Shown one piece after another: positions 6,052-59,184 of a stretch of 59,184 bases of DNA. The notes under the pieces were generated by a model, which saw only the letters and a list, made by a program, of their open reading frames with translations, was not told the DNA's origin and did not search any database. The stretch is from Nanobdellota archaeon (GTDB taxonomy: Archaea; Nanobdellota; Nanobdellia; Parvarchaeales; Parvarchaeaceae), in assembly GCA_021794235.1 (NCBI GenBank), contig JAJYRE010000020.1:1-59184 (forward strand), given 5' to 3'. The translations under genes and the position numbers were made by a program. Numbering within the stretch: the stretch's first letter is position 1; each line of letters opens with the position of its first letter.

Positions 6052-6055
6052 CAGA

Positions 6056-31679: not shown

Positions 31680-32984
31680 ATGCAGTCCATTACTAATGAA
31701 TGTGCGAACTGTCAAAAAACATGTTTGCTTGCGCAGGTTTTGTTAGTCAGGTCGGTTTCTATGGGGGCTGACAGCAGTTATCTCGAATCCGTTCTGTTTG
31801 AGGGCAAGAAAGGCGGCGCTTCAAAATTATTAGACAGTCTGGACGGAATAGAATTGCGAATTTCCGAGATGGATGGCAAGAAACTGATCAGTTCCCAAAA
31901 ATATATTAGCCTTTTCCGCCGTAAGCGAACGGGCGTTCTGACAGATAAGATTTTAGAGAGGGGTCCTACCGATGACATATATGTGTGTGTTATGCCCAGG
32001 TCCAGGGCCGAGACGTATTACAGGGTAGAAAACGACAGGATAGTCCGGATGAAGGCGGATTTTGAACTTCCTTCATCTTATCGCCGCGCCGGGCCCTCAG
32101 TTAGGCAGATGGAACGGTTCCTTTCCGATGAACCGACTGAAAGACGTTTGAATCTGGACTTCGATAGAAGAAGGATGAGGCCTTCACCATTTAGTTCCAT
32201 GTACATCCAGTCGGTATCTACAATAGGGTTTTTTATTAGCAGTATAGGTCTTGAGAATTATCTTACACCGTCGTTGCTGACAGATAGTCTTACAGCGCTA
32301 CCTCTTATATTCGCGGATGTGCTGGCTTATGTCGGAATCAGTACATATGCACTGCCTTTGCTAACAAAATCTGTTAAGCAGAGCGCGGATAAGCTAAGAG
32401 AAAGCGCGAAATCCGCCGGCGTAAACTTCAAACGGATGTTTATAATGCCTTCCAGAGAGGAAAATGCCATGACGCTCCCGGATAATTCTATAATACTGAC
32501 ATCGGGAATAGTTGAAGCTCAGAGTCCGGAAGAACTTATGGGGACGATATTCCATGAGTTGGGGCACGTTAAGAAAAGGCACTTCGTAAAGAATATATCC
32601 ATAGCCGCGGGATATCTCTTAACGTCCTTAGTAGCCAGCTCAATTGCCGGTGCAACCACACAGACTCTTTTGCCGGCATTTATAGGCGCTACCGCCGCGT
32701 ATATCGCATCAATCCGCTCTGTACAGAGAAAATTTGAATACGATGCGGACAAGTTCGCGGATTTAAACGGATACGGTCATGGCCTGGTGTACGGTCTCGC
32801 AAAGATCACCGGAAAGCTGGACTTTTACAGGAAAGGCAGTCATCCCTCTACATACAATAGGATAAAAAAGCTTGGTTTTAGACCGGAAAATGTGATGTCC
32901 GATATCGGAATTCACAGGGAGGATGTGTCAGACAGAGTGGATATTGACATAACGACTGTGGAGGAAGGCCGGGATAATCAATAA
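31680..32984 (+). CDS. M48-family (HtpX/Ste24-like) zinc metallopeptidase with N-terminal extension
   Basis: HELGHVKKRH zinc motif, flanking TM segments, and downstream EYDADKFA (third ligand region). The start could be Met28 (31761). Confidence 0.7.
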   Translation: MQSITNECANCQKTCLLAQVLLVRSVSMGADSSYLESVLFEGKKGGASKLLDSLDGIELRISEMDGKKLISSQKYISLFRRKRTGVLTDKILERGPTDDIYVCVMPRSRAETYYRVENDRIVRMKADFELPSSYRRAGPSVRQMERFLSDEPTERRLNLDFDRRRMRPSPFSSMYIQSVSTIGFFISSIGLENYLTPSLLTDSLTALPLIFADVLAYVGISTYALPLLTKSVKQSADKLRESAKSAGVNFKRMFIMPSREENAMTLPDNSIILTSGIVEAQSPEELMGTIFHELGHVKKRHFVKNISIAAGYLLTSLVASSIAGATTQTLLPAFIGATAAYIASIRSVQRKFEYDADKFADLNGYGHGLVYGLAKITGKLDFYRKGSHPSTYNRIKKLGFRPENVMSDIGIHREDVSDRVDIDITTVEEGRDNQ

Positions 32985-33036
32985 AAGCTGTAATATCCCA
33001 TCATATTCTTATATACTAAAACGGCAATCTTAGGTT

Positions 33037-35718
33037 ATGGCTGTAGAAGGTACCATTATAGTTGCAAATCCCGGAACAGGGAAAACAACAGCTCTGGCCG
33101 AACGTGTTGTCGAGCTTCTAAAATCCGGCGTAAAGGAGGAGGATATCCTCTGCATAACATTCACGACGAAGGCAGCTGAGGAGATGCGCCAGAGAATAGA
33201 TTCTAAGATAAACGAAGCGGGTCTGACTGGAGCTAAACCCTACCTGATAAATGTACACACATTCCACAATTTTACATATGAGTATCTCCTCGAAACGAAA
33301 GGAGAGCACAGGATACTGTCCGAGAACCCCCTGCGCTACGCCGTATTCAAGAGTCTGGAGAAAAACAAAGTCTTCACATACGGAGAGGACTACATCGTGG
33401 GTGACATCCTTCCAAAAATAGTAAACGCGATCAGATATCTCAAAAGTTTCGGGATACTGCCGCCAAGCATAGAGTCCGAAAAATCGAAGAGGGAACTGGT
33501 GGATATATACAATAAGGAGGGGATAAAGAACGTCACGGAGGACGAGATACTGGCTCTTTTTGATTATTTTATAGAGGCGTTTAAGGACTACGAGTCTTTC
33601 AAACCGGCAAACTCTATCGACTATATAGATATGCTGCTGAATTTCGTGCAGAACTACGATGGCAGGATTATGCACTACAAGTACGTGCTCGTCGATGAGC
33701 TGCAGGATGTGAACAATCTGGAGGCAAAGATAGCCCTGGAGGTAGGTGACAACCTATTTCTGGTGGGCGACAGGAAACAGGCTATATTCGGCTTTCAAGG
33801 AGGTAGTATCGGCAACTTTAGAAAGTTCGAAGAACTGGATGGAATGAAGAAACTCAAGAAGGGGATAAATCACAGGAGTGCACAGGTGATACTGGACTAT
33901 GCGAAGGAGCACTTTCTGAAGAACAGCTCCGATCCAACGTATGAGGATGAACTGAGCATACTCAAAAGCAGCAAGGACATCAGCGGAGAAGTGTCCCTTA
34001 TCGTCTCAAAAAACCCGTTAAACGCCGCGGTGAAAAAGCTTTCAGCCATACCGGAAAACGAGAAATGTGCGGTGATAACCAGAACGAACAGTCAGCTGCT
34101 GGAGCTGTCAAAACTGCTCGATTCAAAAAACATAGAATACACAACAACCGTAAGTGCATCCGTTTCCGTAGACGCCAAAAAGAGCATAATAGCATTCTTG
34201 AAGGGGCTGCTTTACAGCGACAAGGACACCGTAATAAACGCGCTGTTCACCCCATTTTCCGGTATTTCCCTCAGAGAAGCCTTCGGAATATCAGAAAGAT
34301 TCCATGGAAACGGCAGGACCACAGAGCAGGTACTTGCAGAAGCCAAATCTTTCGCATCATTAAGGGAAAAAAGCTACGACTTTCCGTCAATTTTTGAGAT
34401 ATTCGATACGATTATAATGCCCATATCCGTAACTATTGGAAAAGACTACTTCGCGACTGCGTCCGCGCTGCTTAAAAACATAAAGGAGGCTTTTGACACC
34501 CTTCAGGAGCCTTCCAGGGATGACCTTTTCCTGTATCTTGGAATGACGGCAGACAACTATGAGTCGATGGGCAGAGAGAACAGGGTAACTCTGACGACAG
34601 TACACAAAGCCAAAGGACTGGAATTTGACGACGTAATCTATATCCCGAAGAAGATAGCCGAAAGTATAAGCATGATAGACGCGATAGTCTATGCGATAAT
34701 AAGGAGCACCACCGGCATAGACGCCAGGGAGGAGCTTTTGGAAGAGCACCTGCGTATCGATTTCGTATCTTTTACGAGAGCAAAGAAGAACCTTTACATA
34801 TGCACTTCCAGCGATCTCGAGAGCAGATACCTTCTGGAGAATACCAAAAAAGAGATAGTTAACGACGACACGGAGATAGCACCGGCGTCCGGAAAGTATA
34901 ATGAGGCGTATGCCATGTTTGTAAACGGGAGGTATGATGAGGCGAAGAAGGAACTTACATCATCGGATAGGTGGCTCCCGTATCTGATAGGTTCATACTT
35001 CAAAGGCATAAAAAAAGTCTCATACAGTGCCGCCGAAAGCTTTTCCAGGGACCCGTTCTCTTTTCTTGAGGCCAATATAATGAAGCTGTCCAATGAATCA
35101 GAAGCCATGGAACTCGGAACGTCGGTACACGCGATGGCCGAAGGCATGTTCAAAGGCTCTTTGGATGAGGAATCGATAGAGCCGGGCATGGGAGGATATC
35201 TCCGGAACATAAAAGAAATAGACAGACGGCTTTCCGCCATGGGGATGAAGGAAGTCGCCGCGGAGAGGAGAATAGAGCTGCCTTTGAAAAAAGTGTTCCC
35301 TTCAGTAAAAGAAGACATAATAACCGTTGCAAAAATAGACGCAGTTTACAGGTCTGAAGACGGCAAATATCTTCTACTCGATTACAAGACGGATAAAACG
35401 AACGATAGATCCAGCGAGCACAGAAGACAGCTGGCATTTTATAAAAAAGTGTTTGCAGTGGCAGACGGGATAGACGAGGAAAAGATAGAGGTAGCTCTCG
35501 GTTTCGTAGGCCTGAGAGGGAAAATAAACACAGAGAAACTCGATTCCGAGCTGGATCTGGCGCAGCCTAAGAAAAAACAGATAGATACGGTTGAGAGTCA
35601 TTTTTCCGGGTTTTTACAGTCAATATCCGAACCGGATTCCTTCATTGAAAGGCTGAAATCAAAGCCGATAAAGGGAAACCTGCTGTATGACAGGGTAGTG
35701 GCAGAACTGAACAGGTAG
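33037..35718 (+). CDS. UvrD/PcrA-type SF1 helicase fused to a C-terminal RecB-family PD-(D/E)XK nuclease
   Basis: Helicase motifs: VANPGTGKTT (I), ITFTTKAAEEM, VLVDELQDVN (II), LVGDRKQAIFGFQG (III), TTVHKAKGLEFDDV (V/VI region). C-terminal nuclease motifs: GTSVH, KIDAVY, LLDYKTDK, RRQLAFY. No Cys cluster. Confidence 0.85.
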   Translation: MAVEGTIIVANPGTGKTTALAERVVELLKSGVKEEDILCITFTTKAAEEMRQRIDSKINEAGLTGAKPYLINVHTFHNFTYEYLLETKGEHRILSENPLRYAVFKSLEKNKVFTYGEDYIVGDILPKIVNAIRYLKSFGILPPSIESEKSKRELVDIYNKEGIKNVTEDEILALFDYFIEAFKDYESFKPANSIDYIDMLLNFVQNYDGRIMHYKYVLVDELQDVNNLEAKIALEVGDNLFLVGDRKQAIFGFQGGSIGNFRKFEELDGMKKLKKGINHRSAQVILDYAKEHFLKNSSDPTYEDELSILKSSKDISGEVSLIVSKNPLNAAVKKLSAIPENEKCAVITRTNSQLLELSKLLDSKNIEYTTTVSASVSVDAKKSIIAFLKGLLYSDKDTVINALFTPFSGISLREAFGISERFHGNGRTTEQVLAEAKSFASLREKSYDFPSIFEIFDTIIMPISVTIGKDYFATASALLKNIKEAFDTLQEPSRDDLFLYLGMTADNYESMGRENRVTLTTVHKAKGLEFDDVIYIPKKIAESISMIDAIVYAIIRSTTGIDAREELLEEHLRIDFVSFTRAKKNLYICTSSDLESRYLLENTKKEIVNDDTEIAPASGKYNEAYAMFVNGRYDEAKKELTSSDRWLPYLIGSYFKGIKKVSYSAAESFSRDPFSFLEANIMKLSNESEAMELGTSVHAMAEGMFKGSLDEESIEPGMGGYLRNIKEIDRRLSAMGMKEVAAERRIELPLKKVFPSVKEDIITVAKIDAVYRSEDGKYLLLDYKTDKTNDRSSEHRRQLAFYKKVFAVADGIDEEKIEVALGFVGLRGKINTEKLDSELDLAQPKKKQIDTVESHFSGFLQSISEPDSFIERLKSKPIKGNLLYDRVVAELNR

Positions 35719-35725
35719 CGTTTAA

Positions 35726-36277
35726 TCAGCGAATTTCATCTTTTGAAGCATATCTCGCGACAGAATATACGTCGTATCCATTAAGATCCTCTCTTCCGTG
35801 CATGTACTCCAGTTCCGCAACAAAAGCCACTCCTACGATATCCCCCTTTAACTCACCAATTATCCTCGTGGCAGCGGAGGCGGTCCCGCCGGTCGCCAGG
35901 GTATCGTCCACTATCAGAACGCGTTCACCCTCCTTTATGCTGTCCCTGTGCATTTCGAGCGTGGCAGTTCCGTACTCCAGGGAAAATGTCTCGCTTATCT
36001 TCTCACCCGGTAGTTTTCCGGCTTTTCTTGCCAGGACGAATCCAGCGCCCAGCTCGTAAGCCACCTGTGATCCGGTTATAAACCCCCTCGCCTCTATCCC
36101 GACTACCTTATCTACGTTCCTGCCCCTGTACACGTCGGCTATATTCTTTGCGGTTAGTTTCATAAGTTCCGGATCCATCCAGATTGTGGTAAGATCCAGG
36201 AAATTCACGCCCTTAGTCGGGAAATCGTGTACTATTCTGATGTTCCTCTTTATCATGTCTGAAATTTCGTCGGTCAT
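35726..36277 (-). CDS. apt: adenine phosphoribosyltransferase
   Basis: PRPP-binding loop VLIVDDTLATGGTA, plus FPTKGVNFLD and GIEARGF. Confidence 0.9.
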   Translation of the reverse strand: MTDEISDMIKRNIRIVHDFPTKGVNFLDLTTIWMDPELMKLTAKNIADVYRGRNVDKVVGIEARGFITGSQVAYELGAGFVLARKAGKLPGEKISETFSLEYGTATLEMHRDSIKEGERVLIVDDTLATGGTASAATRIIGELKGDIVGVAFVAELEYMHGREDLNGYDVYSVARYASKDEIR

Positions 36278-37164
36278 AGGATCTTCTTCAGCGCTTCGGC
36301 AATGAGGGGTGACACGTCTATAGTCTCAGAATACTTGCACGGGACGGTGTTTGTCCCCACCACCCTCGAAATCCCGCTTTCAACCATCCGTTTGTATGTC
36401 TCTTCACTTATCAGGAGGTGGGACGCTGCTACCGCGATATCCCCGGCGCCGTTGAGCTTCGCGAATTTTGCCGCCTGTATGACGGTGTTCCCCGTGCTCA
36501 CTATGTCGTCGATTATCAGTACGTCCCTTCCCTCAAAACGGAAGTTCTGCTCGCCGACCAGTCTGACCTCTCCTGTTTTCCTGTCCCTCTCCTTCTCCAG
36601 CTGTGTAAACTGTACTTTCAGGACCGATGCGATGTCCATCGCCTTTGAAAGTGCACCCTTATCAGGAGCGAGTACAACCATGTCCTTCGATCTTTTTCCA
36701 AACAATTCGGCAAAAAGACTGATTGGATCGACTATCGCGTAGTTGCCGTTGAACGATTTTATTGATTCCTGCCTGTGAGGATCGACAGTGACGATAGCAT
36801 CGGCTTCTTCACTGCGCAGCATCCTTAAAATGACTTCGATGCTTATCGGTTCCCCCGGCAAAAACCTCTTGTTCTGTCTCGAATAAGCAAGATAGGGCAT
36901 CACTAACACAATACTGCCTGGCCTGTACCCCTTTACCGCGTCCATAGTGAGGATAAGTTCGATTATATGTTTGTCCTGTGGAGGATATAACGACTGTACT
37001 ATAACCGCCGTCTTATCGGAAACATCCACCGGCACGCGTATGTATGATTCCCCGTCCGGCAGCGTTCTTGATTCTACCTTTACCAGAGGGACATTGAGGA
37101 TTTCGGCTACGCCATCGGCTATTCCATTGGTTGCCGTGCAGGCCACAACGACTACGTTGTCCAT
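36274..37164 (-). CDS. prs: ribose-phosphate pyrophosphokinase
   Basis: Prs motifs: DGESYIRV, MPYLAYSRQ, TVDPH, DVLIIDDIVSTGNT. I trimmed the start to Met55 (MDNVVVVAC). A TATA-like tttaata lies about 22 nt upstream on this strand, and the longer ORF (to 37326) would run through the neighbouring divergent promoter. Confidence 0.85.
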   Translation of the reverse strand: MDNVVVVACTATNGIADGVAEILNVPLVKVESRTLPDGESYIRVPVDVSDKTAVIVQSLYPPQDKHIIELILTMDAVKGYRPGSIVLVMPYLAYSRQNKRFLPGEPISIEVILRMLRSEEADAIVTVDPHRQESIKSFNGNYAIVDPISLFAELFGKRSKDMVVLAPDKGALSKAMDIASVLKVQFTQLEKERDRKTGEVRLVGEQNFRFEGRDVLIIDDIVSTGNTVIQAAKFAKLNGAGDIAVAASHLLISEETYKRMVESGISRVVGTNTVPCKYSETIDVSPLIAEALKKIL

Positions 37165-37223
37165 ACCATTAGTAGGATCTTGGCTATTAAATCGGTTTTT
37201 TGGGTCCATAGCAGACAGGTTTG

Positions 37224-37232
37224 TTTTATATA
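37224..37232 (+). promoter_or_regulatory. TATA box of the pilin-signal surface protein gene
   Basis: ttttatata, 24 nt upstream of the ATG at 37256. Confidence 0.55.
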
Positions 37233-37255
37233 GAAAAAATTCTATAACTGGTATA

Positions 37256-39343
37256 ATGGTGGTCAGAACACAGTCTGCACTGGAATATATGATGACGTAC
37301 GGCTGGGCCATACTTGTAATTGTCATAGTCGCAGCTGCACTTTACGAGATGGGAATATTCAATCCGAATAACAGTCTTACTGAGGGATATACGGGATTTT
37401 CAAGCATGCCAATCCTAGGGCAGGTGTGTCTTTCAAACATCGGTTTGTTTGTATTCGTTGGAAATTCGGTGGGAAACGTTATAACCATAACGTCTGTTAA
37501 TGTTACGCTTCAGAACGGTTCCACTGTATCGGATAATCTGGACCTGACGGTGAGTCCGGACAGCGATATCCTGATTCCTATCCTCGGCGGGTGTCAAAAC
37601 AATGGAAATACAAACTATCATATATCTGCTACAGTAAACTATTATCTCACTGGATTACCGCTCAGGCAGAGCGGTTCCGCCACGGGGGTATTATACGGGG
37701 AAGTAACACAGAATATAAATAACGCACCGGCAGCTGTCAGGTCTCTTTTCTCGGTATCCTACGCGTTTGCAACGCCGTATATAGGTGTTCCGTTCCAGAC
37801 GCAGGAGTACTATGCAAATGGCGTCTTTATAGGCAAGGTGGCTTCCGCATTCCCTACACCGCTCAGCGATCTTAACAATGGATATATACAGTGCGGCAAG
37901 CCGTACAACACACAGGGTTATACGGCTGTTTCTGATGTGTACCTGACCAACGATTCGAGCTTTGAGATTCTCACCAACGACGGTACAACAGTCTTCTACA
38001 GGCCGGTATCCGGGGGCCCCTGGACGAGCGTATTCGGAAGTCAGGCATGGAAAGGTAATTCGGCGGGCCATTTCGGGCCTACGACCGTGCATCTGGCATC
38101 GGGCGAGTACGAGGTCGCGGTCGACTGGATAAACATATGCAGTGGAGGGGTAAGTGCTATAGACGTAAAGGGCGGCCTTCCGGCTTCTAACTACTGGAAC
38201 GTAACTGTCTGGACTCCGAAGGACAACCAGGTCGATCTGCTTTCGTATCAGAATGTGACTTTTAATCCGGCTTATCCGGCAAATATATCGGTAGAGCAGA
38301 TCGGAAACTGGAGCAGTAAGCTGTCGGTGGACAGCTGCAACTCGAATAATTTCTGTACAACCATATTTGACGCATTCAACCTCCCTGCAAACACATCGTG
38401 GTGGGTGGACTACGCGGGCTCGAACGTGACAACAAAATCCAACTTTATATCTTTTACGGTTTCCAACGGAAACTACTCCTACCAGCTTGCCGAGCCGGCA
38501 GTAAACTCCAGCGGCTGCGTAAACAAGTACACCACAGCTACGTCCGGAAACCTTGCATCCGGATCCTCCTTACCTATATTCTACAGTCAATCGGAGAACT
38601 GCTATACTACGCTCAAAGAGAACAACCTGCCGAGCGGGGCACAATGGTCTGCGTCTATAAACGGCGTTCAGGATACGGCTTATTCGTCAAATAATCTGAC
38701 TTTTCAGAACAGCCCGGGTTCCTACTCCATCTCTATACCCAATGTAGTCTATTCGGGTGTGACATACCTTCCGTGCCCTTCATCAGGATACATAGCCGCC
38801 GGAACCTACGTTCAGATAAACTTTTCGACATCCTCATGCGGCTACGGCCTCGCTACTTTTGGGGAAGCGGGTCTGCCGTACGGCCTTAACTGGAGTGTTA
38901 ATTACAGCGGCGACCTCAAGGCCACAAATTCCTCAGCAGTCACACTCGTTGAGCCGTCCGGCTCCCATACATTTACTGTCCCGTATCCTACGCTGGCTTT
39001 TCTGCATACCGGCTGCACCATAAATTACACTGCTAACAGCGTTACCGGCACCCTTTCGACCGGGAGCCTCAGCACCATAAGCTTTTCAAAGTCGTACAAT
39101 TGCACTTCCGAGTTTATCGCGCACGGCCTGCCAGCCGGAGCCCAATGGAATGCAAATTATTCGGATATACTGAAATCATCTAGCGTGTCCAGCATTAACT
39201 TCAGCACTACGCTTGAGGCCGCACAGTTCGGGATACCCACCGTTGCGTACGGTGGCAGCACATATTATCCCTGCCCGAACAATGGGACTCTTCCGAGTGG
39301 AAGTCTGCAAAATATATATTATGCAACAGTACAGAAGTGCTAG
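37256..39343 (+). CDS. surface protein with class III (archaeal type IV pilin-like) signal peptide and C-terminal GLPxGxxW repeat modules
   Basis: MVVRTQSALEYMMTYGWAILVIVIVAAALY is the archaeal prepilin-type N-terminus. The TATA ttttatata at 37224..37232 is 24 nt upstream of this ATG. Four ~80-aa C-terminal modules begin NLPANTSWWV, NLPSGAQWSA, GLPYGLNWSV and GLPAGAQWNA. Confidence 0.75.
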   Translation: MVVRTQSALEYMMTYGWAILVIVIVAAALYEMGIFNPNNSLTEGYTGFSSMPILGQVCLSNIGLFVFVGNSVGNVITITSVNVTLQNGSTVSDNLDLTVSPDSDILIPILGGCQNNGNTNYHISATVNYYLTGLPLRQSGSATGVLYGEVTQNINNAPAAVRSLFSVSYAFATPYIGVPFQTQEYYANGVFIGKVASAFPTPLSDLNNGYIQCGKPYNTQGYTAVSDVYLTNDSSFEILTNDGTTVFYRPVSGGPWTSVFGSQAWKGNSAGHFGPTTVHLASGEYEVAVDWINICSGGVSAIDVKGGLPASNYWNVTVWTPKDNQVDLLSYQNVTFNPAYPANISVEQIGNWSSKLSVDSCNSNNFCTTIFDAFNLPANTSWWVDYAGSNVTTKSNFISFTVSNGNYSYQLAEPAVNSSGCVNKYTTATSGNLASGSSLPIFYSQSENCYTTLKENNLPSGAQWSASINGVQDTAYSSNNLTFQNSPGSYSISIPNVVYSGVTYLPCPSSGYIAAGTYVQINFSTSSCGYGLATFGEAGLPYGLNWSVNYSGDLKATNSSAVTLVEPSGSHTFTVPYPTLAFLHTGCTINYTANSVTGTLSTGSLSTISFSKSYNCTSEFIAHGLPAGAQWNANYSDILKSSSVSSINFSTTLEAAQFGIPTVAYGGSTYYPCPNNGTLPSGSLQNIYYATVQKC

Positions 39344-50839: not shown

Positions 50840-50971
50840 ATGTCCCAAATTAAAATAACCGGATTTAAATGTGAACGCTGTGCCCATAAATGGGTACCGA
50901 ATGATGCAAATATACGGCCAGTTGTATGTCCGAAATGCAAGTCTCCTTATTGGAGCAAACCTAAGAGATAA
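50840..50971 (+). CDS. 43-aa zinc-ribbon protein
   Basis: Not in the ORF track (too short). My translation is MSQIKITGFKCERCAHKWVPNDANIRPVVCPKCKSPYWSKPKR, with CxxC...CxxC spacing typical of a zinc ribbon. Its stop lies 2 nt before the Dam-like MTase ATG, and A/T-rich promoter-like sequence lies upstream. Confidence 0.5.
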   Translation: MSQIKITGFKCERCAHKWVPNDANIRPVVCPKCKSPYWSKPKR

Positions 50972-50973
50972 AT

Positions 50974-51828
50974 ATGAGGATAGAAATACCTACACTAGTA
51001 AAATGGGCAGGAGGGAAGAAGCAGCTACTTAACCAGTTTGATAAATTTTTCCCAAAAAAAATAGATAGATATATCGAACCGTTTCTTGGCGGCGGTGCAG
51101 TGGCATTCTACATAATAAAACGTTTCCATCCAAAAAATGTATTCTTATCCGATATAAATGAGGAACTGGTGAATGCGTATAAAGCAGTCCAACTTAATGT
51201 TCCTGAACTCATAGAAGCTTTGTCTTTATTAGCAAAAAAACACAGCAAAGAGTTCTATTATAAAATAAGGGCACAGGATCCACAAAAATTATCTGATGTA
51301 GATAGAGCTGCTAGACTTATCTATCTTAACAAAACTTGTTTCAACGGTCTTTATCGCGTTAATTCGGAGGGTAAGTTTAATGTACCTATTGGTGAGCACA
51401 AACATTTGCAGATAGTAGACACGAAAGATTTAATGGAGATAAATCATCTCCTAAAACATGCAATTATAAAAACTATGCCATTTGAGAAGGTATTAGACTT
51501 TGCTAAAAAGGGAGATTTTATTTATCTCGATCCTCCATATTATCCTTTGAAAGAAGGTAAAAGCTTTACTAAATACCACAAGGGAGACTTTTCAAAGATT
51601 GACCAGGAGAGACTAAAAAGTATATTTGACAAATTGACTAAACGCGGTTGCAAAGCTATGTTAAGTAATAGCGACGCTCCTTTTATTCGTGATTTGTACA
51701 AAGAGTACTCCATACAGATAGTACAAGCAAGAAGAATGATTAACTGTGATGCAACTAAACGTGGCAAAATAAATGAAGTTGTTGTAACAAACTATAAGCC
51801 AATCTATCAAAAAACACTCATCGATTAA
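50974..51828 (+). CDS. Dam-family (D12 class, alpha) N6-adenine DNA methyltransferase
   Basis: VKWAGGKKQLL, SAM motif EPFLGGGAV, NKTCFNGLYRVN, and catalytic IYLDPPY near the C-terminal third. Confidence 0.9.
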   Translation: MRIEIPTLVKWAGGKKQLLNQFDKFFPKKIDRYIEPFLGGGAVAFYIIKRFHPKNVFLSDINEELVNAYKAVQLNVPELIEALSLLAKKHSKEFYYKIRAQDPQKLSDVDRAARLIYLNKTCFNGLYRVNSEGKFNVPIGEHKHLQIVDTKDLMEINHLLKHAIIKTMPFEKVLDFAKKGDFIYLDPPYYPLKEGKSFTKYHKGDFSKIDQERLKSIFDKLTKRGCKAMLSNSDAPFIRDLYKEYSIQIVQARRMINCDATKRGKINEVVVTNYKPIYQKTLID

Positions 51829-52358
51829 CGACCATTATGTGTAGCGCTAGATACTATTGGAAAGATATCTTCCTTATTGTATAGTGCATTTAAGACTCCT
51901 TTGAACATAAACGCACCCTGATATCCATTTTTCTCTTCCATTGTCAATAACTCCATAACAGTCGCAAGAAATTCTACAGAATATTGACCATATGCATTTA
52001 ACTTTTTAAACCTCTTTAATTTCTTTTTAGTGGCAAAATGCAGTCTACATTCCCGCTGTTCTCTCTTGTTTCTAAAGGGTTTTATCTTATCATATGAATC
52101 TAGCAGGTATTTTATGAATTCTAGAGTAAGTTTTTTATTATGTTCCTTTTTTAACAGTAAATCTATAACCCAATGAATGTGTTTAGGGGTCCTAACCACA
52201 AAATCTCTTGTATTTCTATCCCTATACTTAATAACTATGTCTAGAGCCGGATTCTTACCACGATCGCCTTGAAAAATGCCGATTACCTCACCCTGTGCTA
52301 AATGAAACTCTTTGAAAGCGGAAATACGGGGTCTTCCTTTTGGCTTCCATTCCATCAA
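51825..52358 (-). CDS. hypothetical protein; candidate cognate restriction endonuclease of the Dam-like MTase
   Basis: 177-aa ORF convergent with the MTase, with 3' ends overlapping by 4 nt. It has the same low G+C as the MTase. I could identify no nuclease motif, so the functional call is purely positional. Confidence 0.35.
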   Translation of the reverse strand: MMEWKPKGRPRISAFKEFHLAQGEVIGIFQGDRGKNPALDIVIKYRDRNTRDFVVRTPKHIHWVIDLLLKKEHNKKLTLEFIKYLLDSYDKIKPFRNKREQRECRLHFATKKKLKRFKKLNAYGQYSVEFLATVMELLTMEEKNGYQGAFMFKGVLNALYNKEDIFPIVSSATHNGR

Positions 52359-52496
52359 AATAAATGGTATTTTAACTTTTAATATGCATAATTAGTAAAT
52401 AAGCTATTAAAATAGATACACTAACTTTTTGTTGGTATTGGTATCATTATTCAATCGTTCAAAAAAGCTTAAATTCTTCGATTTTATCATCATAAA

Positions 52497-53537
52497 ATGG
52501 GTGCAAATGGGGGTATTATAGGCATAGACTTTTTTTGCGGCGCTGGTGGATTAACACACGGACTATCAAAAGCTGGCATAGATGTAGTAAAAGGAATTGA
52601 TATAGATTCAACAGTAAAGGATACATATATAGGAAATAATCCTTGGGCGATATTCTTAAATAAGGATATAAGAAATCTTTCATCTGAGGAAGTTATGGGA
52701 GGTGTTGATATAGGGCAGAAAAAGCTCTTACTTGCAGGATGCGCACCTTGCCAGCCCTTTTCCTCGCAAAACAGATCTAATGGAAGAAATACGGATCAAA
52801 GACGATCGTTAATGATGGAATTTGCAAGATTTGTTAAACAATTAAAACCAGAATATATACTTGTTGAGAATGTACCTGGTTTTTCAAGAGATAGAAATCA
52901 TGAATCGTTTATAAGGACTATAAAAGAGCTCGGATACAAATTTGATGAAAATATCCTAAATGCTGCTGATTATGGAGTACCGCAGAAAAGACGCCGTTAC
53001 GTTATGCTTGCTTCAAAAACTATTGATATTAAACTACCAGATCCAGAATATGGATTTGGGGGGAAAAAATATCGTACCGTTAAAGATGCTATAGGAAAAT
53101 TTCCAAAAATTAATGCCGGCGAAACATCGATGAAATTAAAAAATCACACTGCAAGAAAACTTTCGAAAATAAACCTTGACAGGATAAGTAAGGTACCAAG
53201 AAATGGTGGGTCCAGAAATTCCTTTCCAAACCGACTAATATTAAAATGCCATGAAAGTCATTCAGGTCATTCGGATGTATATGGCAGGATGAGTTGGGAT
53301 AAACCAGCTCCTACATTAACATGTAAGTGCACGTGTCTTACAAATGGAAGATTCGGGCATCCAGAACAAAATAGGGCCATATCATTAAGAGAAGCTGCTG
53401 CGCTTCAAACATTTCCAGAGAGGTATATTTTCTACGGCAATATTAGCAATATAACTAAGCATATAGGAAACTCAGTACCAGTATTATTTGCGGAGAAATT
53501 AGGGTCGTATATAATAAAAACAGAAAATGGTAGATAA
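52497..53537 (+). CDS. dcm: DNA (cytosine-5)-methyltransferase
   Basis: Motif I IDFFCGAGGLTHG, motif IV GCAPCQPFS, motif VI ENVPGF, motif VIII QKRRRYVMLA, motif IX REAAALQTFP, motif X GNSVP. Confidence 0.92.
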   Translation: MGANGGIIGIDFFCGAGGLTHGLSKAGIDVVKGIDIDSTVKDTYIGNNPWAIFLNKDIRNLSSEEVMGGVDIGQKKLLLAGCAPCQPFSSQNRSNGRNTDQRRSLMMEFARFVKQLKPEYILVENVPGFSRDRNHESFIRTIKELGYKFDENILNAADYGVPQKRRRYVMLASKTIDIKLPDPEYGFGGKKYRTVKDAIGKFPKINAGETSMKLKNHTARKLSKINLDRISKVPRNGGSRNSFPNRLILKCHESHSGHSDVYGRMSWDKPAPTLTCKCTCLTNGRFGHPEQNRAISLREAAALQTFPERYIFYGNISNITKHIGNSVPVLFAEKLGSYIIKTENGR

Positions 53538-53892
53538 ACTAACTAAATCACAAAGAAGTTATAATATGTCCAGAATCAGATCCAGGGACACCTCAATTGA
53601 GGTTAAACTAAAACCGCTGATGAAAAGTCTAGGTTTTACTTACCATACAACAATATATGGTCACCCAGATTTCGCTAATAAAAAGCAAAAAATAGCCGTT
53701 TTTGTAGATGGATGTTTCTGGCACGGATGCAAAAAACATTACAAAACGCCAAAAAGCAATGTGACATTCTGGAAGACAAAGATAGCTGCAAATATTAAGA
53801 GGGACAGAATAGTAAATAATCGTCTTAAAAAAGAGGGGTGGCGCGTTATTCGGGTATGGGAACACAAAATCCGTAGTAATTTAAATAAATAG
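53527..53892 (+). CDS. vsr: very short patch repair endonuclease
   Basis: SQRSYNMSRIRSRDTSIEVKL, GHPDFANKKQKIAVFVDGCFWHGC, and GWRVIRVWEH. Overlaps dcm by 11 nt. Confidence 0.9.
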   Translation: MVDKLTKSQRSYNMSRIRSRDTSIEVKLKPLMKSLGFTYHTTIYGHPDFANKKQKIAVFVDGCFWHGCKKHYKTPKSNVTFWKTKIAANIKRDRIVNNRLKKEGWRVIRVWEHKIRSNLNK

Positions 53893-53907
53893 CTGCTATA
53901 GATTAAA

Positions 53908-55560
53908 ATGGAAAACAAAGATGAGTTAATAATGAGTTTTGATCCGAATACAATCCAACATTTAGGTATACACCTATACTCGACATTTCCACCAGTATTA
54001 TTGGAATTAATTGCAAACTCATACGATGCCGATGCTGAAAAGGTTTTGATTAAAATCGAGGAGGGGCCTAAAAAGACTGTCGTAATCCAGGATGATGGCG
54101 ATGGGATGACATTTGAGGAAATTAATGACAAATTCTTAAGGATAGGCAGAAATAGAAGAGAGGATGAAAGCAAGCAGAAAACTGCCAAGGGAAGGTTAAT
54201 TATTGGGAAAAAAGGACTAGGCAAACTATCTTTTTTTGGTATAGCAAAGAAGGTTACAATTTCTACAAGAAAAAATGGAAAAGAAAATAAATTTCTTATG
54301 ACATGGGACAGTATTAAAAATTCAAAAGACCGCGAATATCGCCCTAAAATACTAGATAAGGACAAGATTTGTTCAGAAAAAACAAATGGCACAACAATCA
54401 TCTTAAGTGATATAAAACGAGAAAGTCCATTTGATATTAACTCCTTGGCTGACAGTATCTCAAAATCTTTCTTATTTGATAAGGATTTTATGGTCATGAT
54501 TCAGCACGATAATGATGAGCCAGTTGTGATTACTAATGATAGAAAATATGAAAACATAGAAAAACAGATCTGCTGGAAGATACCTGAGGATGTAAAACTG
54601 GAATCTGATTATAAGAATAAAGAAAAAATATTGGGAGAAATAATAGCTACCAAACTGCCAATATCACCAAAATCTGAGATGCGTGGAATCACATTATTTT
54701 CCAGGAAAAAATTAGTAAATGTCCCTGAATATTTTTCAAGTAGCACATCTAGTCACTTTTTCTCTTATCTGACAGGCTGGTTACAGGTTGATTTTATTGA
54801 TGAGATTGAAGATGATGTAATATCTACAACTAGGCTATCTTTAAATTGGGAACAGGAAGATATGATTAGACTAAGAGAGTATTTGACACAATTAGTAGGG
54901 TGGCTACAGAATGATTGGAGAAAAAAAAGGGACGAAATTGGGAGAAAAGATATAGAGAAAAATACAGGTATAAACATTGATAACTGGTTTGAAAAAACAC
55001 CATTAGAAGTAAAGGAAAACTTAACCCCCATTGTACAAGCAATAATAAAAAATGAAGAGGTACCAGGTTATTCTAATAGTACAATAATACAAAAATTACA
55101 TTCGGTGTTACCTGAATATACGTACTATCACTATAGACATTTACATGAAGAGATAAAAGATGCCTCTGGGGGTGACTACAGAGATGGAGATTATTATAAT
55201 GCATTTAGTGAAGCGATCAAACGGTATATTAATACTGCAAAAACAAAAGCGAGTCCTATAAATGCTAAAAAAGATTTTGAAGCAATGGATATTATTTTTG
55301 GACCAGCAGCAAAATTGACTGTAATGAATGGTTATAAAAGGCGATCTGGAAATGAGTTTGATAGAGACACTAAGAAGAGTATAGAACTTGGTCAGAATCT
55401 GCTTTCCAAAGGTATTATTGAAGGGGGCAGAAATGGATTAAGCCATGAGGAAATAGAGGATATGAAAGTGTCTGGATTATTTACAGAAAAAGACTGTTTA
55501 GATATGTTGAGTGTAGTATCTCATCTTTTCAGAAGATTGGATGATGCAAAGTTAAGATGA
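53908..55560 (+). CDS. GHKL (Bergerat-fold, MORC/HSP90-like) ATPase fused to a C-terminal Ymh/TIGR02391-type domain
   Basis: N-box ELIANSYDADA, G1 box IQDDGDGM, G2 box GKKGLGKLSFFG, and a transducer-like middle region (RGITLFSRKKLV). The C-terminus (GDYYNAFSEAIKRYIN...GGRNGLSHEE...CLDMLSVVSHLFRRLDDA) matches the Hypoth_Ymh pattern as I remember it. Starts 15 nt after vsr. Confidence 0.8.
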   Translation: MENKDELIMSFDPNTIQHLGIHLYSTFPPVLLELIANSYDADAEKVLIKIEEGPKKTVVIQDDGDGMTFEEINDKFLRIGRNRREDESKQKTAKGRLIIGKKGLGKLSFFGIAKKVTISTRKNGKENKFLMTWDSIKNSKDREYRPKILDKDKICSEKTNGTTIILSDIKRESPFDINSLADSISKSFLFDKDFMVMIQHDNDEPVVITNDRKYENIEKQICWKIPEDVKLESDYKNKEKILGEIIATKLPISPKSEMRGITLFSRKKLVNVPEYFSSSTSSHFFSYLTGWLQVDFIDEIEDDVISTTRLSLNWEQEDMIRLREYLTQLVGWLQNDWRKKRDEIGRKDIEKNTGINIDNWFEKTPLEVKENLTPIVQAIIKNEEVPGYSNSTIIQKLHSVLPEYTYYHYRHLHEEIKDASGGDYRDGDYYNAFSEAIKRYINTAKTKASPINAKKDFEAMDIIFGPAAKLTVMNGYKRRSGNEFDRDTKKSIELGQNLLSKGIIEGGRNGLSHEEIEDMKVSGLFTEKDCLDMLSVVSHLFRRLDDAKLR

Positions 55561-55656
55561 GCATATCTATTAAAATTATTTCACAGGTTAAAGAAAGTAA
55601 GATTTACTATTTTTAGAACAATTTGAAAATTAGTGGCTCACTTTTAATTTAGTGTG

Positions 55657-55758
55657 AAATTAAATAATATTATAATTAGTATTATATAATATATAAAAAT
55701 AATCATATTTTTATATTCATTATAAATATAATTATTACAATAATAATATTATTATAAT
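55657..55758. other. ~100-nt almost pure A/T tract with palindromes, inside a 450-nt non-coding spacer
   Basis: I count only about 4 G/C in about 100 nt. Contains the 16-bp perfect palindrome ATAATAATATTATTAT (55740..55755). Just upstream is an 8-bp-stem hairpin, TTTAATTT-agtgtg-AAATTAAA (55643..55664). Confidence 0.6.
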
Positions 55759-56010
55759 CCGTGCTTTTATCTAACTTAAATTACTGTTTAAATAATTAAA
55801 ATATCATCTTTTTAACTCTTCCTGCTTTCCTACTCTTCACGGCCTAGAAGCGTCAAAGAAAGCTTCGACGTATTACACAGATCCATCAACAGGCACGAAG
55901 GACTTAGAGAAAAGTACCTGAAATAGTCTAATACAGATTAAATGAAAGCTATTTATAGTATAATACTTCATTTAATTCATTAAATAGTGATGAAAACAAT
56001 GGGGTAAAAT

Positions 56011-56640
56011 ATGTCTAATAAAAATAAACTAGAGGAGCAACTGGAGGATGTAAAAACATCAAAATCAGTATTGGATAAGTTACCGATAACCAAATCCGGA
56101 AAGAAAATAATCGGCTATATGAATGAAAATAACATTGAAGCGGCCAGAAAAGAGGCCAAGAGGGGATCAAAAATTACTGCGTGTGTATACGGCGCTATTG
56201 CATCCGCATCATACACCGCTGCAGGGCTAGGAGCTTACATGGTTAATAACCTGTCGCCAGACAAACTATATTCAGCACAGACTGGTTTTGGCTATGCCGT
56301 ACTTATTACTGTAGGGGGAGTCTCCGCGGTAATGGGCACTTATTTACTTAAGAATGAGCTGGAGACCTATTTTAAACCTGATGGATATATGAAATGGTTG
56401 AAAAATTCGTATGATTCAACCGTAAAACGACTAAAAAAGGACAACCAGCCACAAGCTTATACAAAGGACTGCGAAAAGGTTATGGGAAATATTAACGCTA
56501 TGAGTGAAGTAAAGCGGCTTAATAATATGAATAACTATGAAAATGTTGTAGGAGACATTAATGTTATAGGCGAGATAAAGCGACTTAATGCCGCAGAAAA
56601 TGAAAAACTCAGCAGTGAGCTTGAGAAGAGGTTGGATTGA
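56011..56640 (+). CDS. hypothetical membrane protein (2 Gly/Ala-rich TM), operon gene 1
   Basis: 209 aa. TM spans ITACVYGAIASASYTAAGLGAYMV and GFGYAVLITVGGVSAVMGTYLL. C-terminal short repeat: MGNINAMSEVKRLN / VGDINVIGEIKRLN. Confidence 0.55.
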   Translation: MSNKNKLEEQLEDVKTSKSVLDKLPITKSGKKIIGYMNENNIEAARKEAKRGSKITACVYGAIASASYTAAGLGAYMVNNLSPDKLYSAQTGFGYAVLITVGGVSAVMGTYLLKNELETYFKPDGYMKWLKNSYDSTVKRLKKDNQPQAYTKDCEKVMGNINAMSEVKRLNNMNNYENVVGDINVIGEIKRLNAAENEKLSSELEKRLD

Positions 56641-57098
56641 TGGTAAAATTCGATTTTAATTTGGAGCATCAGGACAAAGATACACAGAGTGAAATAAAAA
56701 AAGCCACACTCGAAGAGGTATTGATGTTCAATAAAATAGCTGACGCAGTAGTAAAGTACGGTAAATCCTATCCCATCTGCGGAGACAAACACTGCGATCC
56801 AAGCAATACTATAGGGTATGGCAGCGCACTACAAACATCAAAAAAGTTTCCCGATAATGGAGCGGTATTTGAAGTGAAGGGAAAATACACAAACAACGAA
56901 TCGCCGTATAATCTGGATAAGAACTATACTTTCAGCCTTGACGTGCGGGTTAAAAACTCGCCAGTTCTTCTGTATGAGCACAAGAAATCGGGAGAAGGAT
57001 ATGTTATGATAGAGAATCAAGGATCATGGAAAACAGCACTGAACACACTGAATCAGGAACTAACTGAATACGGGATGAGCGAAGTGCAGAATATATAG
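56637..57098 (+). CDS. hypothetical soluble protein, operon gene 2
   Basis: 153 aa. The start overlaps the gene 1 stop by 4 nt (ATGA). No family recognised. Confidence 0.55.
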   Translation: MMVKFDFNLEHQDKDTQSEIKKATLEEVLMFNKIADAVVKYGKSYPICGDKHCDPSNTIGYGSALQTSKKFPDNGAVFEVKGKYTNNESPYNLDKNYTFSLDVRVKNSPVLLYEHKKSGEGYVMIENQGSWKTALNTLNQELTEYGMSEVQNI

Positions 57099-57114
57099 AA
57101 TTTAAAGGAAATTT

Positions 57115-57771
57115 ATGAAAACACGTAAAAGTTTGGATAATTTTTTAGAAGCGCCTGTACAAAAGAAAGCCAAATTGGTCGGAACAAAGCATCTCGTTGG
57201 CGTTCTTGGTTTAAGCTCGGGAACCGCATTGACTGAAATCGATGTTCTGGACAGGTTGAATGACGTCAAAGCTGTAACTACGCCCACCTCTATTTCATAT
57301 ACGCCGGGCGGATACGATCTGCTGGGACAGCTAGCAAATAATCCTGTATATCACGATTTTTCGCATTTCCTTGTGACTACGGGCGTATCCGGAGGTCCTA
57401 ACAACACGTTGGGTATACTGGCGGCGGCCGCTTCCATGGTCGTTGGAGGATTGGCAGCAAGATCATATTTGAGAAGCGATAGACAGGAAGCTGAAACGGG
57501 GTATAAATCCGCCAAGGGCGCACTGTACAGCAAGGCGGCAGCGGCTGTTTCATTTTTGTCGGCGGGCATATATCTCGGCTCACAGTCATTCCTACCGGTT
57601 GTAAACGACGTACTCTACAAGGCACCTCTCTCCAGCATGGCTGAAGCGGCTATTGGAGGCGCTGCGCTGCTATCCAGTATATACACCGGATTAAGTTATT
57701 TAAGACAAAAACGTTTTGAAATAGCATATGAATCGTCACAAAAGACGACATTAGAGGATAATAAGGTATAA
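57115..57771 (+). CDS. hypothetical membrane protein (3 Gly/Ala-rich TM), operon gene 3
   Basis: 218 aa. TM spans LGILAAAASMVVGGLAA, AAAAVSFLSAGIYLG and AAIGGAALLSSIYTGL. Confidence 0.55.
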   Translation: MKTRKSLDNFLEAPVQKKAKLVGTKHLVGVLGLSSGTALTEIDVLDRLNDVKAVTTPTSISYTPGGYDLLGQLANNPVYHDFSHFLVTTGVSGGPNNTLGILAAAASMVVGGLAARSYLRSDRQEAETGYKSAKGALYSKAAAAVSFLSAGIYLGSQSFLPVVNDVLYKAPLSSMAEAAIGGAALLSSIYTGLSYLRQKRFEIAYESSQKTTLEDNKV

Positions 57772-57772
57772 A

Positions 57773-58303
57773 ATGGACGGCGATAAAAACTACAGAATAC
57801 CGAGAAAATTCGGCTTCGGCCTGGATGATCTGATAAGCAGCGGCATGTCAGAGTCCAGGAAGAGGGATTTTGAGATATTCAAGAGGGCCGAAATGATTGC
57901 AAATGATGATAATCTGGGGAAAGACAAGGACCTTTTTGCCTATATTGACGGAAGTTCTCCCACTTTCTCCGGCTCGGCTACATGTGATGACTTTGATATA
58001 AAGTACGTCCAGTATAGGGAGGGTATTCTGTCCAAACACTTAGCTATAGATCATCCCAGAGACGGCGTGGATATATTCAATGATAAAGAAACTGTCTGGC
58101 CATCCAGACTAGATATATATTATAAGGAAAAACCGATCTTCAGGGCAGAAAAATGTGACCTTTTTCATGGACCGGGAATAAGCAGAAAGGAAGTATATTT
58201 CAAGGTCGAATACGACGGTATGGACCCAGGTCTGAGAGCTAATCTATTGGAGAAGCTTACCGAAGGATCCAGGATAGCCAACTATCTGTTTTGGGGAAAG
58301 TAA
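57773..58303 (+). CDS. hypothetical soluble protein, operon gene 4
   Basis: 176 aa. Starts 1 nt after the gene 3 stop. Weak block similarity to gene 2 (LDVRVKNSPVLLYEHK/LDIYYKEKPIFRAEK; LNTLNQELTEYG/RANLLEKLTEGS). Confidence 0.55.
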   Translation: MDGDKNYRIPRKFGFGLDDLISSGMSESRKRDFEIFKRAEMIANDDNLGKDKDLFAYIDGSSPTFSGSATCDDFDIKYVQYREGILSKHLAIDHPRDGVDIFNDKETVWPSRLDIYYKEKPIFRAEKCDLFHGPGISRKEVYFKVEYDGMDPGLRANLLEKLTEGSRIANYLFWGK

Positions 58304-58352
58304 AGCCGTATGAACCGGGTTTATATATAAAGTAATCTCTAATAAGCAGGAT

Positions 58353-59184
58353 ATGACTACCAAAACTCTGGAAGAAAGGCTTAACATCGGTAAAAATAGA
58401 AATGAGCCTACCGTGAGTGTAATTCTGGCAACAAAGAACAGGCCAAAAAAGCTTGAAAAGTCCATAGAAAGCGTTCTCGGGCAGACTTACAGGGATTTCG
58501 AGCTCATAGTGGTTGACGGATCAGACAACGATTATAGCGCTAAGATAGTAAAAACCTTCGCGTCGCACGATCCCAGGGTAAAGTACATGGTAGACGGCGG
58601 CAACGGGCCCGCAGCAGCCAGGAACATAGGGCTGTACGGCTCAGGCGGCAGATACATAAATTTTCACGATGACGACATCATTATGAAACCCGACAAACTG
58701 GACGTTCTTGTCGACGGATTCGACGGCGAGAAAGAAGATACAGGGGTGGTATATTCCTCCCATATAGAAGTCTCCAAGAGAGGTACCCGTACCGTACCAA
58801 CCGCCTTAAAGAAGAGCTATTCGACGGATGCGGCTTATATACATAAAAAACTAACAAAAGGCTGCGTTGTCGATTCGAGCTCCGCGATGATCAAAAGAGA
58901 GTGTTTTGATAAGTCCGGCATGTTCGACGAGGACCTAAAAACGGCTGAAGACTGGGATATGTACCTGCGCATAGCCAGGAACTATAAATTCAAGTTCATT
59001 GACCGGCCCCTGTATACGTCGTATTTGGGCACGGATAACCTGCGTTTTGACATGACTAAATTTAAGGCGGCAAACAGGATTATAAGGGAAAAGACCGCTG
59101 ATTATATGAAAAACAGGGGAACCCTACAGTATCTAAAGTATAGGCTTTCAACATACTATGCTGCGGGAGCGTTCTACATTCTGT
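58353..59184 (+). CDS. family 2 glycosyltransferase (5' part; runs off the right edge)
   Basis: Not in the track because it is open-ended. My translation is MTTKTLEERLNIGKNRNEPTVSVILATKNRPKKLEKSIESVLGQTYRDFELIVVDGSDND...GPAAARNIGL...YINFHDDDD, the canonical GT2 N-terminal pattern. TATA ttatatataa lies 23 nt upstream. Confidence 0.85.
   Translation, partial: MTTKTLEERLNIGKNRNEPTVSVILATKNRPKKLEKSIESVLGQTYRDFELIVVDGSDNDYSAKIVKTFASHDPRVKYMVDGGNGPAAARNIGLYGSGGRYINFHDDDIIMKPDKLDVLVDGFDGEKEDTGVVYSSHIEVSKRGTRTVPTALKKSYSTDAAYIHKKLTKGCVVDSSSAMIKRECFDKSGMFDEDLKTAEDWDMYLRIARNYKFKFIDRPLYTSYLGTDNLRFDMTKFKAANRIIREKTADYMKNRGTLQYLKYRLSTYYAAGAFYIL

Follow-up and report, generated by a model that had tools for sequence, protein, structure and literature searches.

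The stretch of DNA examined here, called the window below, comprises 59,184 nucleotides (nt) of contig JAJYRE010000020.1 (positions 1 to 59,184), from an assembly assigned to a Nanobdellota archaeon. Near its 3' end lie three intact open reading frames (ORFs) on one strand. They encode a C5-cytosine DNA methyltransferase (dcm), a Vsr protein (vsr) and a protein of 550 amino acids (aa) in which a GHKL-type ATPase is joined to a C-terminal Ymh domain. The dcm and vsr genes overlap by 11 nt, and 15 nt separate vsr from the GHKL-Ymh gene. The same three genes were obtained from independent gene calls on the source contig (ENA metagenome assembly ERZ27237159, k141_35871), so that the close packing described in an initial annotation of this DNA agrees with both the ORF listing and these calls. 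The three genes constitute one operon. By sequence comparison the module is a new, apparently intact member of the restriction-modification (R-M) modules of the NmeAI/NgoAXIV type, known from Neisseria. The features of the operon are collected in Table 1.

Table 1. Genes, domains and motifs of the dcm-vsr-GHKL/Ymh operon (window coordinates)
Feature	Position	Strand	Length	Basis
AT-rich intergenic stretch 5' of dcm, presumed operon promoter	52359-52496	+		position only, inferred
dcm	52497-53537	+	346 aa	ORF listing
vsr	53527-53892	+	121 aa	ORF listing
GHKL-Ymh gene	53908-55560	+	550 aa	ORF listing
Bergerat ATP-binding domain, motifs I-III (residues 27-147)	53986-54348	+		PF13589
Bergerat motif IV (G161-T162), just 3' of the domain	54388-54393	+		
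S5/transducer-like domain and long helical linker (residues about 201-400)	54508-55107	+		NF050001 match, model
Ymh / HEPN domain (residues 410-544)	55135-55539	+		PF09509
R-x4-H motif R508 NGLS H513, predicted HEPN catalytic site	55429-55446	+		conservation

The methylase and the Vsr protein

The dcm product matches PF00145 at 2e-59, scores 163.6 bits against the TIGR00675 dcm model (cut-off 100.65) and is found by the MTase_II model of PADLOC at 1.7e-91. The motifs FCGAGG, PCQ, ENV, QKRRR and GNSVPV are legible in its translation. It is a complete C5-cytosine DNA methyltransferase and provides the M subunit of the module. The vsr product scores 127.9 bits against TIGR00632 (cut-off 97.85). 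In its alignment to E. coli Vsr (1CW0; 9.5e-22), the Asp of the PDF motif and the His of the FWH motif are conserved. Vsr proteins are nicking endonucleases, and the one encoded here is a T:G mismatch nicking endonuclease and a facultative accessory of the methylase. Both gene identities had already been given in the initial annotation, and the profile matches and the alignment to E. coli Vsr uphold them.

Domains and conserved residues of the GHKL-Ymh protein

The N-terminal part of the 550-aa protein matches PF13589 (HATPase_c_3) at 3.1e-25 in a Pfam profile search, and the C-terminal part matches PF09509 (Hypoth_Ymh) with 38.8 bits, above the gathering score of 25. The TIGR02391 model gives 34.3 bits on the Ymh domain, slightly under its cut-off of 39.45. 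Residue conservation was examined in an alignment of 72 family members from different species. Ten residues of the ATP-binding site (E33, N37, D40, D62, G64, G66, G100, K102, G103 and G105) are invariant in all 72, T162 is kept in 71, and the position of K268 holds a lysine or an arginine in every member. In the Ymh domain, R508 and H513 are retained in 71 of the 72 proteins, the lone exception being a gap. Because both the ATPase residues and the R-x4-H motif are so strongly conserved, the ATPase and the HEPN activities both appear to be under selection.

PF09509, the Ymh family, has been recognised as one of the HEPN families in which the R-x4-6-H motif is conserved, and Ymh domains fused to paraMORC GHKL ATPases were described in R-M neighbourhoods (Anantharaman et al. 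2013, PMC3710099). The initial annotation had recognised the Bergerat site (ELIANSYDADA, DDGDGM and GKKGLGKLS, all present), a transducer-like middle region and the Ymh domain with its GGRNGLSHEE segment, each of which is confirmed by the profile searches, the conservation or the structural comparison described below. It had also stated that the module contains no nuclease motif. This was incorrect, as Vsr nicks DNA and Ymh is a HEPN domain with an intact R508-NGLS-H513 site. Its suggestion that Ymh serves as an effector or a regulatory domain survives in the first half; as a member of the HEPN superfamily, Ymh is no regulatory domain of unknown kind.

An AlphaFold model of the 550-aa protein, made with 40 homologs, has a mean predicted local distance difference test score (pLDDT) of 82. 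Foldseek aligned about 370-450 columns of the model to Hsp90/TRAP1, MORC2, MORC3 and the 43K fragment of GyrB, with E values from 1e-11 to 1e-9. The order of parts in the model is a GHKL ATPase, an S5-type transducer, a long helix (residues 317-353) and a helical C-terminal domain. Modelled separately, the C-terminal domain is all-helical with a pLDDT of 90.7, and the R508-H513 motif is predicted to lie in a loop that joins a long helix to the one after it, as in HEPN domains. A hidden Markov model search with the C-terminal domain against the PDB sequences found nothing. The HEPN assignment is thus a matter of the Pfam match, the conserved motif and the profile analysis of 2013.

PADLOC matched no named defence system with the proteins of the module. 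On the 550-aa protein it returned only generic 'REase_II' hits on the N-terminal part and one weak PD-Lambda-3_B hit (E 0.0078) on the C-terminus.

A sister family with a different C-terminal domain

The best NCBIfam match of the 550-aa protein is NF050001, 'BbrUII/HgiDII family restriction enzyme', with 228.9 bits and an E value of 1.3e-67. The match covers residues 9-379 on profile positions 3-398 and stays below the equivalog cut-off of 550 bits. PHROG 6203 behaves in the same way, matching the protein in part. The C-terminal domain of NF050001 (profile positions about 400-659, with a D...E-x-K pattern) is missing from the 550-aa protein, which has the Ymh domain in its place. One HgiDII-like protein, encoded at 3992-5848 of a prophage-like locus (L086) next to a C5-methylase, is 39% identical to the 550-aa protein over residues 5-423 (E 2e-94).

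An exhaustive search of representative proteins was used to sort the top 150 matches into two classes. One class consists of full-length relatives of about 550 aa. The other holds about 38 proteins of 590-770 aa, which match residues about 5-420 only. When ten of the longer representatives (619-770 aa) were scanned, nine of them, as well as the L086 protein, covered nearly the whole HgiDII/BbrUII model; the remaining one (P0192, 770 aa) matches it only to profile position 500. The longer relatives used for the analysis of the C-terminal motif match the HgiDII/BbrUII model, all of them below its cut-off. An R-x-D ... E-x-K pattern is conserved at the C-terminus of 27-29 of the 31 that were aligned, corresponding to D512, E527 and K529 of the L086 protein. 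In these longer relatives, among them P0163-P0270 of 590-670 aa, the pattern constitutes a PD-(D/E)xK nuclease signature.

Taken together, the two classes point to a single GHKL-S5-linker engine that carries either a PD-(D/E)xK or a HEPN domain at its C-terminus, either version being encoded beside a C5-methylase. The C-terminal domain would accordingly be the effector and the N-terminal part a shared sensor or motor, because it is the C-terminus that is swapped on a common engine. The 550-aa protein is likely to be the effector arm of the module, as the initial annotation had suggested. The window module shares with the HgiDII/BbrUII systems the homologous GHKL, S5 and linker parts and a neighbouring C5-methylase; it differs from them in that HEPN/Ymh takes the place of the PD-(D/E)xK C-terminus and in that its methylase comes from another orthologous group.

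A second candidate for a nuclease site was considered in the middle region of the 550-aa protein (H283, D295, D298, D303 and R309). It was discarded, since the HgiDII-like relatives conserve this segment too and have a PD-(D/E)xK domain of their own.

R.HgiDII had been described as a GHKL protein with an unassigned C-terminus (Orlowski & Bujnicki 2008, PMC2441816), and HgiDII and BbrUII are reported to be restriction systems of the SalI type (GTCGAC). The homology of the first ~420 residues to these enzymes brings in the main rival explanation for the 550-aa protein, namely that it is a conventional sequence-specific DNA endonuclease (Type IIP-like, of the CCGG type) that cuts unmethylated DNA. 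The part that would make it one, however, is the PD-(D/E)xK domain of the HgiDII-like relatives, which is precisely what HEPN replaces, and no other nuclease motif was found in the protein.

Engines of this kind occur more widely. The paraMORC ATPases were described as GHKL and S5 engines in R-M and defence loci, together with C5-methylases and Vsr (Iyer, Abhiman & Aravind 2008). The paraMORC3 protein VcSduA (Shedu type I-D) likewise joins a GHKL and S5 engine to a C-terminal effector nuclease, and its ATPase and nuclease residues are both needed for phage defence (PMC12137116). Unlike the window family, in which the effector is HEPN and the methylase is near-obligate, VcSduA carries a nuclease of the DUF4263 PD-(D/E)xK type and needs no methylase to work.

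Distribution and gene neighbourhood

A protein search returned more than 2000 relatives, of which the best 120 were inspected for their architecture. All 120 are about 550 aa long, contain both domains and are 49-56% identical to the window protein; they come from many phyla and are named in the databases mostly as 'TIGR02391 family protein'. In a scan of 185,579 species, with one genome per species, 368 species encode a relative. The best 80 of these 368 loci, from which the neighbourhoods described below were taken, belong to Patescibacteria, Bacteroidota, Pseudomonadota, Actinomycetota, Nitrospirota, DPANN archaea, Methanoregula and Methanosarcinales. The archaeal occurrences include Pacearchaeota and Woesearchaeota in addition to the latter two groups. 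An archaeal host, on which the initial annotation had remarked, is therefore nothing exceptional for a family found in several archaeal groups and many bacterial phyla. In viral contigs the GHKL-Ymh gene is rare (7 loci in 2.9 million).

A C5-methylase gene lies directly adjacent to the GHKL-Ymh gene and on the same strand in 71 of the 80 loci; in 69 it comes just before that gene, at a distance of about -49 to +54 nt. Seven more loci have a C5-methylase within 6 kb, and in two it is absent, one of these being on a truncated contig. The linked methylases form a single orthologous group with a mean identity of 47%, and conservation in their target-recognition region equals that in the catalytic core. 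The window Dcm is orthologous to the methylase that accompanies the GHKL-Ymh gene in 75 of the 80 loci. The distances among the methylases co-vary with those among the GHKL-Ymh proteins (Spearman 0.34, a value reached by none of 500 permutations), as would be expected if one DNA site were read by both R and M. This close linkage supports the view, put forward in the initial annotation, that the genes form one methylation-linked module of the restriction or defence type. A tight pairing with one orthologous group of methylases is also to be expected of R-M isoschizomer families, and in this respect it would suit a DNA endonuclease too.

Vsr is a less constant partner. The gene is present in 30 of the 80 loci, at variable positions, and the gene order of the window recurs in a single locus (L018). 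Clustering of all neighbouring ORFs in the 80 loci revealed no recurrent neighbour other than the methylase and vsr. Since the methylase is near-constant, vsr is found in 30/80 and nothing else recurs, the core is a two-gene pair of methylase and GHKL-HEPN protein, with Vsr as an optional addition. The three-gene unit of the initial annotation is thereby reduced: the link to the methylase holds, and vsr drops out of the core. Occasional neighbours are serine recombinases and a Type I HsdR.

The variable presence of vsr also bears on a different function for the 550-aa protein, that of a MutL-like helper of Vsr which stimulates very-short-patch repair at methylated sites and is not a restriction effector. 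MutL, a GHKL ATPase, does stimulate Vsr, including V.NgoAXIV (PMC6116569; Iyer et al. 2008), and in the window vsr stands directly upstream of the GHKL gene. The Dcm-Vsr system of E. coli resembles the window operon in having overlapping dcm and vsr genes, in the repair of deaminated 5-methylcytosine by Vsr and in the participation of a GHKL protein, MutL; it has, however, no linked effector gene, and MutL ends in a dimerisation/endonuclease domain of its own rather than in HEPN. A helper of Vsr would hardly be encoded where vsr is missing, as it is from 50 of the 80 loci, nor would a repair helper need the conserved HEPN motif, and the sister proteins have a PD-(D/E)xK nuclease in the same position. 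Such a role is the least probable of the explanations considered and is very improbable in itself.

A larger operon was seen in Chryseobacterium sp. OSA05B (L058, positions 290-9291), and a similar one in a second locus (L059). The order in the former is dcm, a 996-aa paraMORC-like protein whose domains include HEF_HK and a further HATPase_c, a Response_reg_2 protein, the GHKL-Ymh gene, an HNH_2 gene on the other strand, and vsr. Here the two-component-like HEF_HK/Response_reg_2 pair of Bellieny-Rabelo et al. 2021 (compare PMC8011034) is inserted between M and R.

Relation to the NmeAI and NgoAXIV systems of Neisseria

The combination of genes found in the window has precedents in Neisseria. 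R.NmeAIP of REBASE was described as an N-terminal GHKL domain followed by a C-terminal 'Hypoth_Ymh' (Orlowski & Bujnicki 2008, PMC2441816). NmeAI consists of three genes, a methylase, a restriction gene and a short-patch-repair gene, the last being Vsr (PMC3787668). M.NmeAI and the gonococcal NgoAXIV system recognise and methylate CCGG. The initial annotation could place a GHKL-Ymh protein coupled to dcm and vsr in no characterised system; in fact such systems were on record, both in these descriptions and in the paraMORC-Ymh fusions of 2013, and a further example is the locus of N. gonorrhoeae described next.

A tblastn search of a plasmid collection (PLSDB) gave two N. gonorrhoeae matches, whose targets are in fact chromosomes of 2.17 Mb. 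In one of them, CP119142, residues 3-550 of the query are matched with 35.2% identity (E 2e-78). The locus (L089, 1547363-1558982) contains a C5-methylase, a GHKL-Ymh gene and vsr in a row, and the R-x4-H motif of its Ymh domain reads FRNPVQH. The GHKL-Ymh gene is interrupted by two in-frame stops and the methylase gene by a stop and a frameshift, and vsr is intact. The split R gene agrees with the published ngoAXIV operon, the methylase of which, however, is complete. Judged by its composition, the locus would be ngoAXIV. It adjoins comP-like and ComEA-like genes.

The window module and NmeAI/NgoAXIV have the same three genes, a C5-methylase (M), a GHKL and Ymh 'R' protein and Vsr (V). Their order is M-V-R in the window and M-R-V in Neisseria, the host of the window module is uncultured and probably archaeal, and the three ORFs are intact in the window whereas M and R are disrupted in the gonococcal genome that was read. 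Over its C-terminal half the window Dcm shares 46% identity with the methylase of the gonococcal module, which does not fix the specificity of the window enzyme; the site CCGG applies to the Neisseria systems.

Recently, the gonococcal genes were studied in a preprint of January 2026 (10.64898/2026.01.10.698803). According to its authors, CCGG cuts in gonococcal DNA and pilin variation both depend on the ngoAXIV and ngoAXIII operons, and R1.NgoAXIV and R.NgoAXIII are said to cut unmethylated CCGG. Deletion of RM1R1 lowered pilin variation and increased growth. M.NgoAXIII is described as an isoschizomer of M.HpaII. The text of the preprint gives no domain information, and it could not be confirmed that RM1R1 corresponds to the GHKL ORF.

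These reports, which for NgoAXIV are indirect claims from work in vivo, favour a DNA endonuclease, which is also what the REBASE names R.NmeAIP and R.NgoAXIV imply. The loss of CCGG cuts, however, was shown only for the deletion of both operons, and the enzyme of the other operon, which may be HpaII-like, could explain the C^CGG ends. Furthermore, with two in-frame stops in the gonococcal GHKL-Ymh gene, 'R1', if it is that ORF, would lose the HEPN domain. In view of these points and of the replacement of the PD-(D/E)xK domain, a conventional DNA endonuclease is considered unlikely, although it remains the chief competitor of an RNA-cutting effector.

Proposed mechanism

That the operon is a self/non-self module, with M as the protector and the GHKL-HEPN protein as the effector, is very probable. 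Within such a module the balance tips towards RNA as the substrate of the effector, on the strength of what is generally known of the HEPN superfamily. The catalytic HEPN domains characterised so far (those of Cas13, Csm6, RNase L/Ire1, RnlA/LsoA and HepT) are RNases that need no metal and act through the ribose 2'-OH, and no catalytic HEPN domain is known to be anything but an RNase. Because of this use of the 2'-OH, cleavage of RNA is likelier than that of DNA, and the same requirement speaks against a DNA endonuclease. The statement as a whole, an R-M-like operon of the NmeAI/NgoAXIV type in which an ATP-gated HEPN effector cuts RNA, is given a little more credence than its negation.

The module may be pictured to work as follows. 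Dcm would methylate C5 in a short DNA site and thereby mark the DNA of the host as self. Vsr would repair the T:G mismatches that arise from deaminated 5-methylcytosine and is not the restriction nuclease. The GHKL-S5 module of the R protein would engage cognate DNA that is unmethylated, and the binding of ATP would bring about dimerisation of its N-terminal part, as is typical of GHKL proteins. Dimerisation and DNA engagement would then switch on the C-terminal HEPN effector. The cutting of RNA by HEPN, leading to growth arrest or abortive infection, would be a likelier outcome than double-strand cuts in DNA. The most specific form of this scheme, in which an R-M system senses unmethylated DNA through a GHKL clamp and its HEPN domain cleaves cellular or viral RNA, so that abortive infection is gated by methylation, is a tentative possibility, rather less likely than not.

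Several observations weigh against an RNA-cutting HEPN effector in a methylation-gated module. Foldseek comparison of the C-terminal domain with the PDB gave nothing significant, the best E value being 0.16. HEPN structures were among the weak matches only: 2hsb was found with E 0.66 and a template modelling (TM) score of 0.43, and 7bxo, a HEPN toxin, and 9bj7, AbiV, were weaker still. CCGG is not depleted in the window (observed/expected ratio, O/E, 0.90) and hence shows no trace of avoidance. The reading of the DNA sequence cannot readily be assigned to any one part of the 550-aa protein. Experimental or biochemical work on any GHKL-Ymh protein was not found in the literature searched. In REBASE and in the 2026 preprint, finally, the Neisseria protein is taken to be a CCGG enzyme that cuts DNA.

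Genomic setting of the operon

The operon is situated in an island of low GC content (0.29-0.36) at about 50900-56000, compared with about 0.45-0.50 elsewhere in the window. Direct or inverted repeats flanking the island were sought at its boundaries and none was convincing, and neither an integrase nor a tRNA gene was found in the window. A tRNA scan and an Rfam scan of the window were both empty and hence provided neither an integration site nor a taxonomic marker. A scan for sigma-70-type promoters gave fewer promoter-like sites than shuffled sequence, the model being of the bacterial type and uninformative here; no terminators were found in a scan of the window with a bacterial-type model.

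The island contains a second methylase module besides that of dcm. A Dam-family N6-adenine methylase is encoded at 50974-51828 on the forward strand (TIGR00571 at 1.3e-86), and an ORF of 177 aa at 51825-52358 on the reverse strand is arranged tail-to-tail with it, with an overlap of 4 nt. The 177-aa ORF is divergent from dcm and separated from it by 138 nt. It had zero matches in Pfam, NCBIfam, PADLOC, PHROGs, PDB, plasmids and phages. Possibly it is a GATC restriction enzyme that has escaped recognition, which would make a second R-M pair with Dam in the island.

Outside the island (window positions 1-50800 and 56001-59184), GATC is the most depleted palindrome of 4 nt, with 116 occurrences observed and 216 expected (O/E 0.54); CTAG is the second (O/E 0.57), and CCGG, at 0.90, is not depleted there. 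The depletion of GATC is consistent with long exposure to GATC-specific restriction. It is to be connected, if to anything, with the neighbouring Dam module.

The Dam module has to be taken into account in yet another explanation of the 550-aa protein. It might be a guard similar to PrrC and RloC, that is, a latent HEPN RNase which is restrained by the system of Dam and the 177-aa ORF and which fires when a phage disables that system. An analogy between paraMORC-Ymh proteins and PrrC/RloC was proposed by Anantharaman et al. 2013 (PMC3710099), and Dam with its unassigned convergent ORF is located immediately upstream in the same island. PrrC and RloC, too, belong to R-M loci and join an NTPase to a HEPN-type RNase at the C-terminus; they differ in having an ABC-type ATPase of their own, where the window protein has a GHKL ATPase, and in being restrained by a separate Type I complex. 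No separate restriction-enzyme gene recurs in the 80 loci of the window type, Dam occurs in one other locus only, the 177-aa ORF is without detectable relatives in any library tried, and the C5-methylase is the sole constant partner. A guard of this kind is therefore highly improbable, if slightly less so than a helper of Vsr.

Directly 3' of the island, four consecutive ORFs on the same strand (209, 153, 218 and 176 aa) occupy 56011-58303; they have no Pfam or PHROGs family, save for one weak PHROG match. At 28061-39343, two ORFs of 1189 and 798 aa without a family match are located on either side of a UvrD/PcrA-like helicase gene (33037-35718), and this region could be a further defence or repair cluster. 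The window also encodes an archaeal-type trehalase (18251-20035; TreH1 model at 1e-191, under the equivalog cut-off) and a proton P-ATPase of the plasma-membrane type (7877-10285; TIGR01647, over the cut-off). These two genes hint that the host is archaeal and possibly Thermoplasmata-like; the window has neither rRNA nor tRNA that could corroborate this.

Significance

The module of the window is not an unplaced system. Its type has been catalogued since 2008, was discussed in 2013 and is present in archaea as well as bacteria. It is widespread, horizontally mobile and recorded in REBASE and in comparative-genomic papers, and the window locus adds one more copy, probably an archaeal one. The puzzle posed by the family is that a DNA methylase is near-obligately paired with a protein in which HEPN is the one effector that can be recognised, when a sister family couples the same ATPase module to a classical DNA nuclease. 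The substrate of the HEPN domain bears on the role of the NgoAXIV genes, which the recent preprint implicates in gonococcal pilin variation. It also bears on whether self/non-self marking of the R-M type can drive a response that targets RNA; if the reading of a methylation-gated, RNA-cutting effector is true, an epigenetic mark on DNA would control an RNase.

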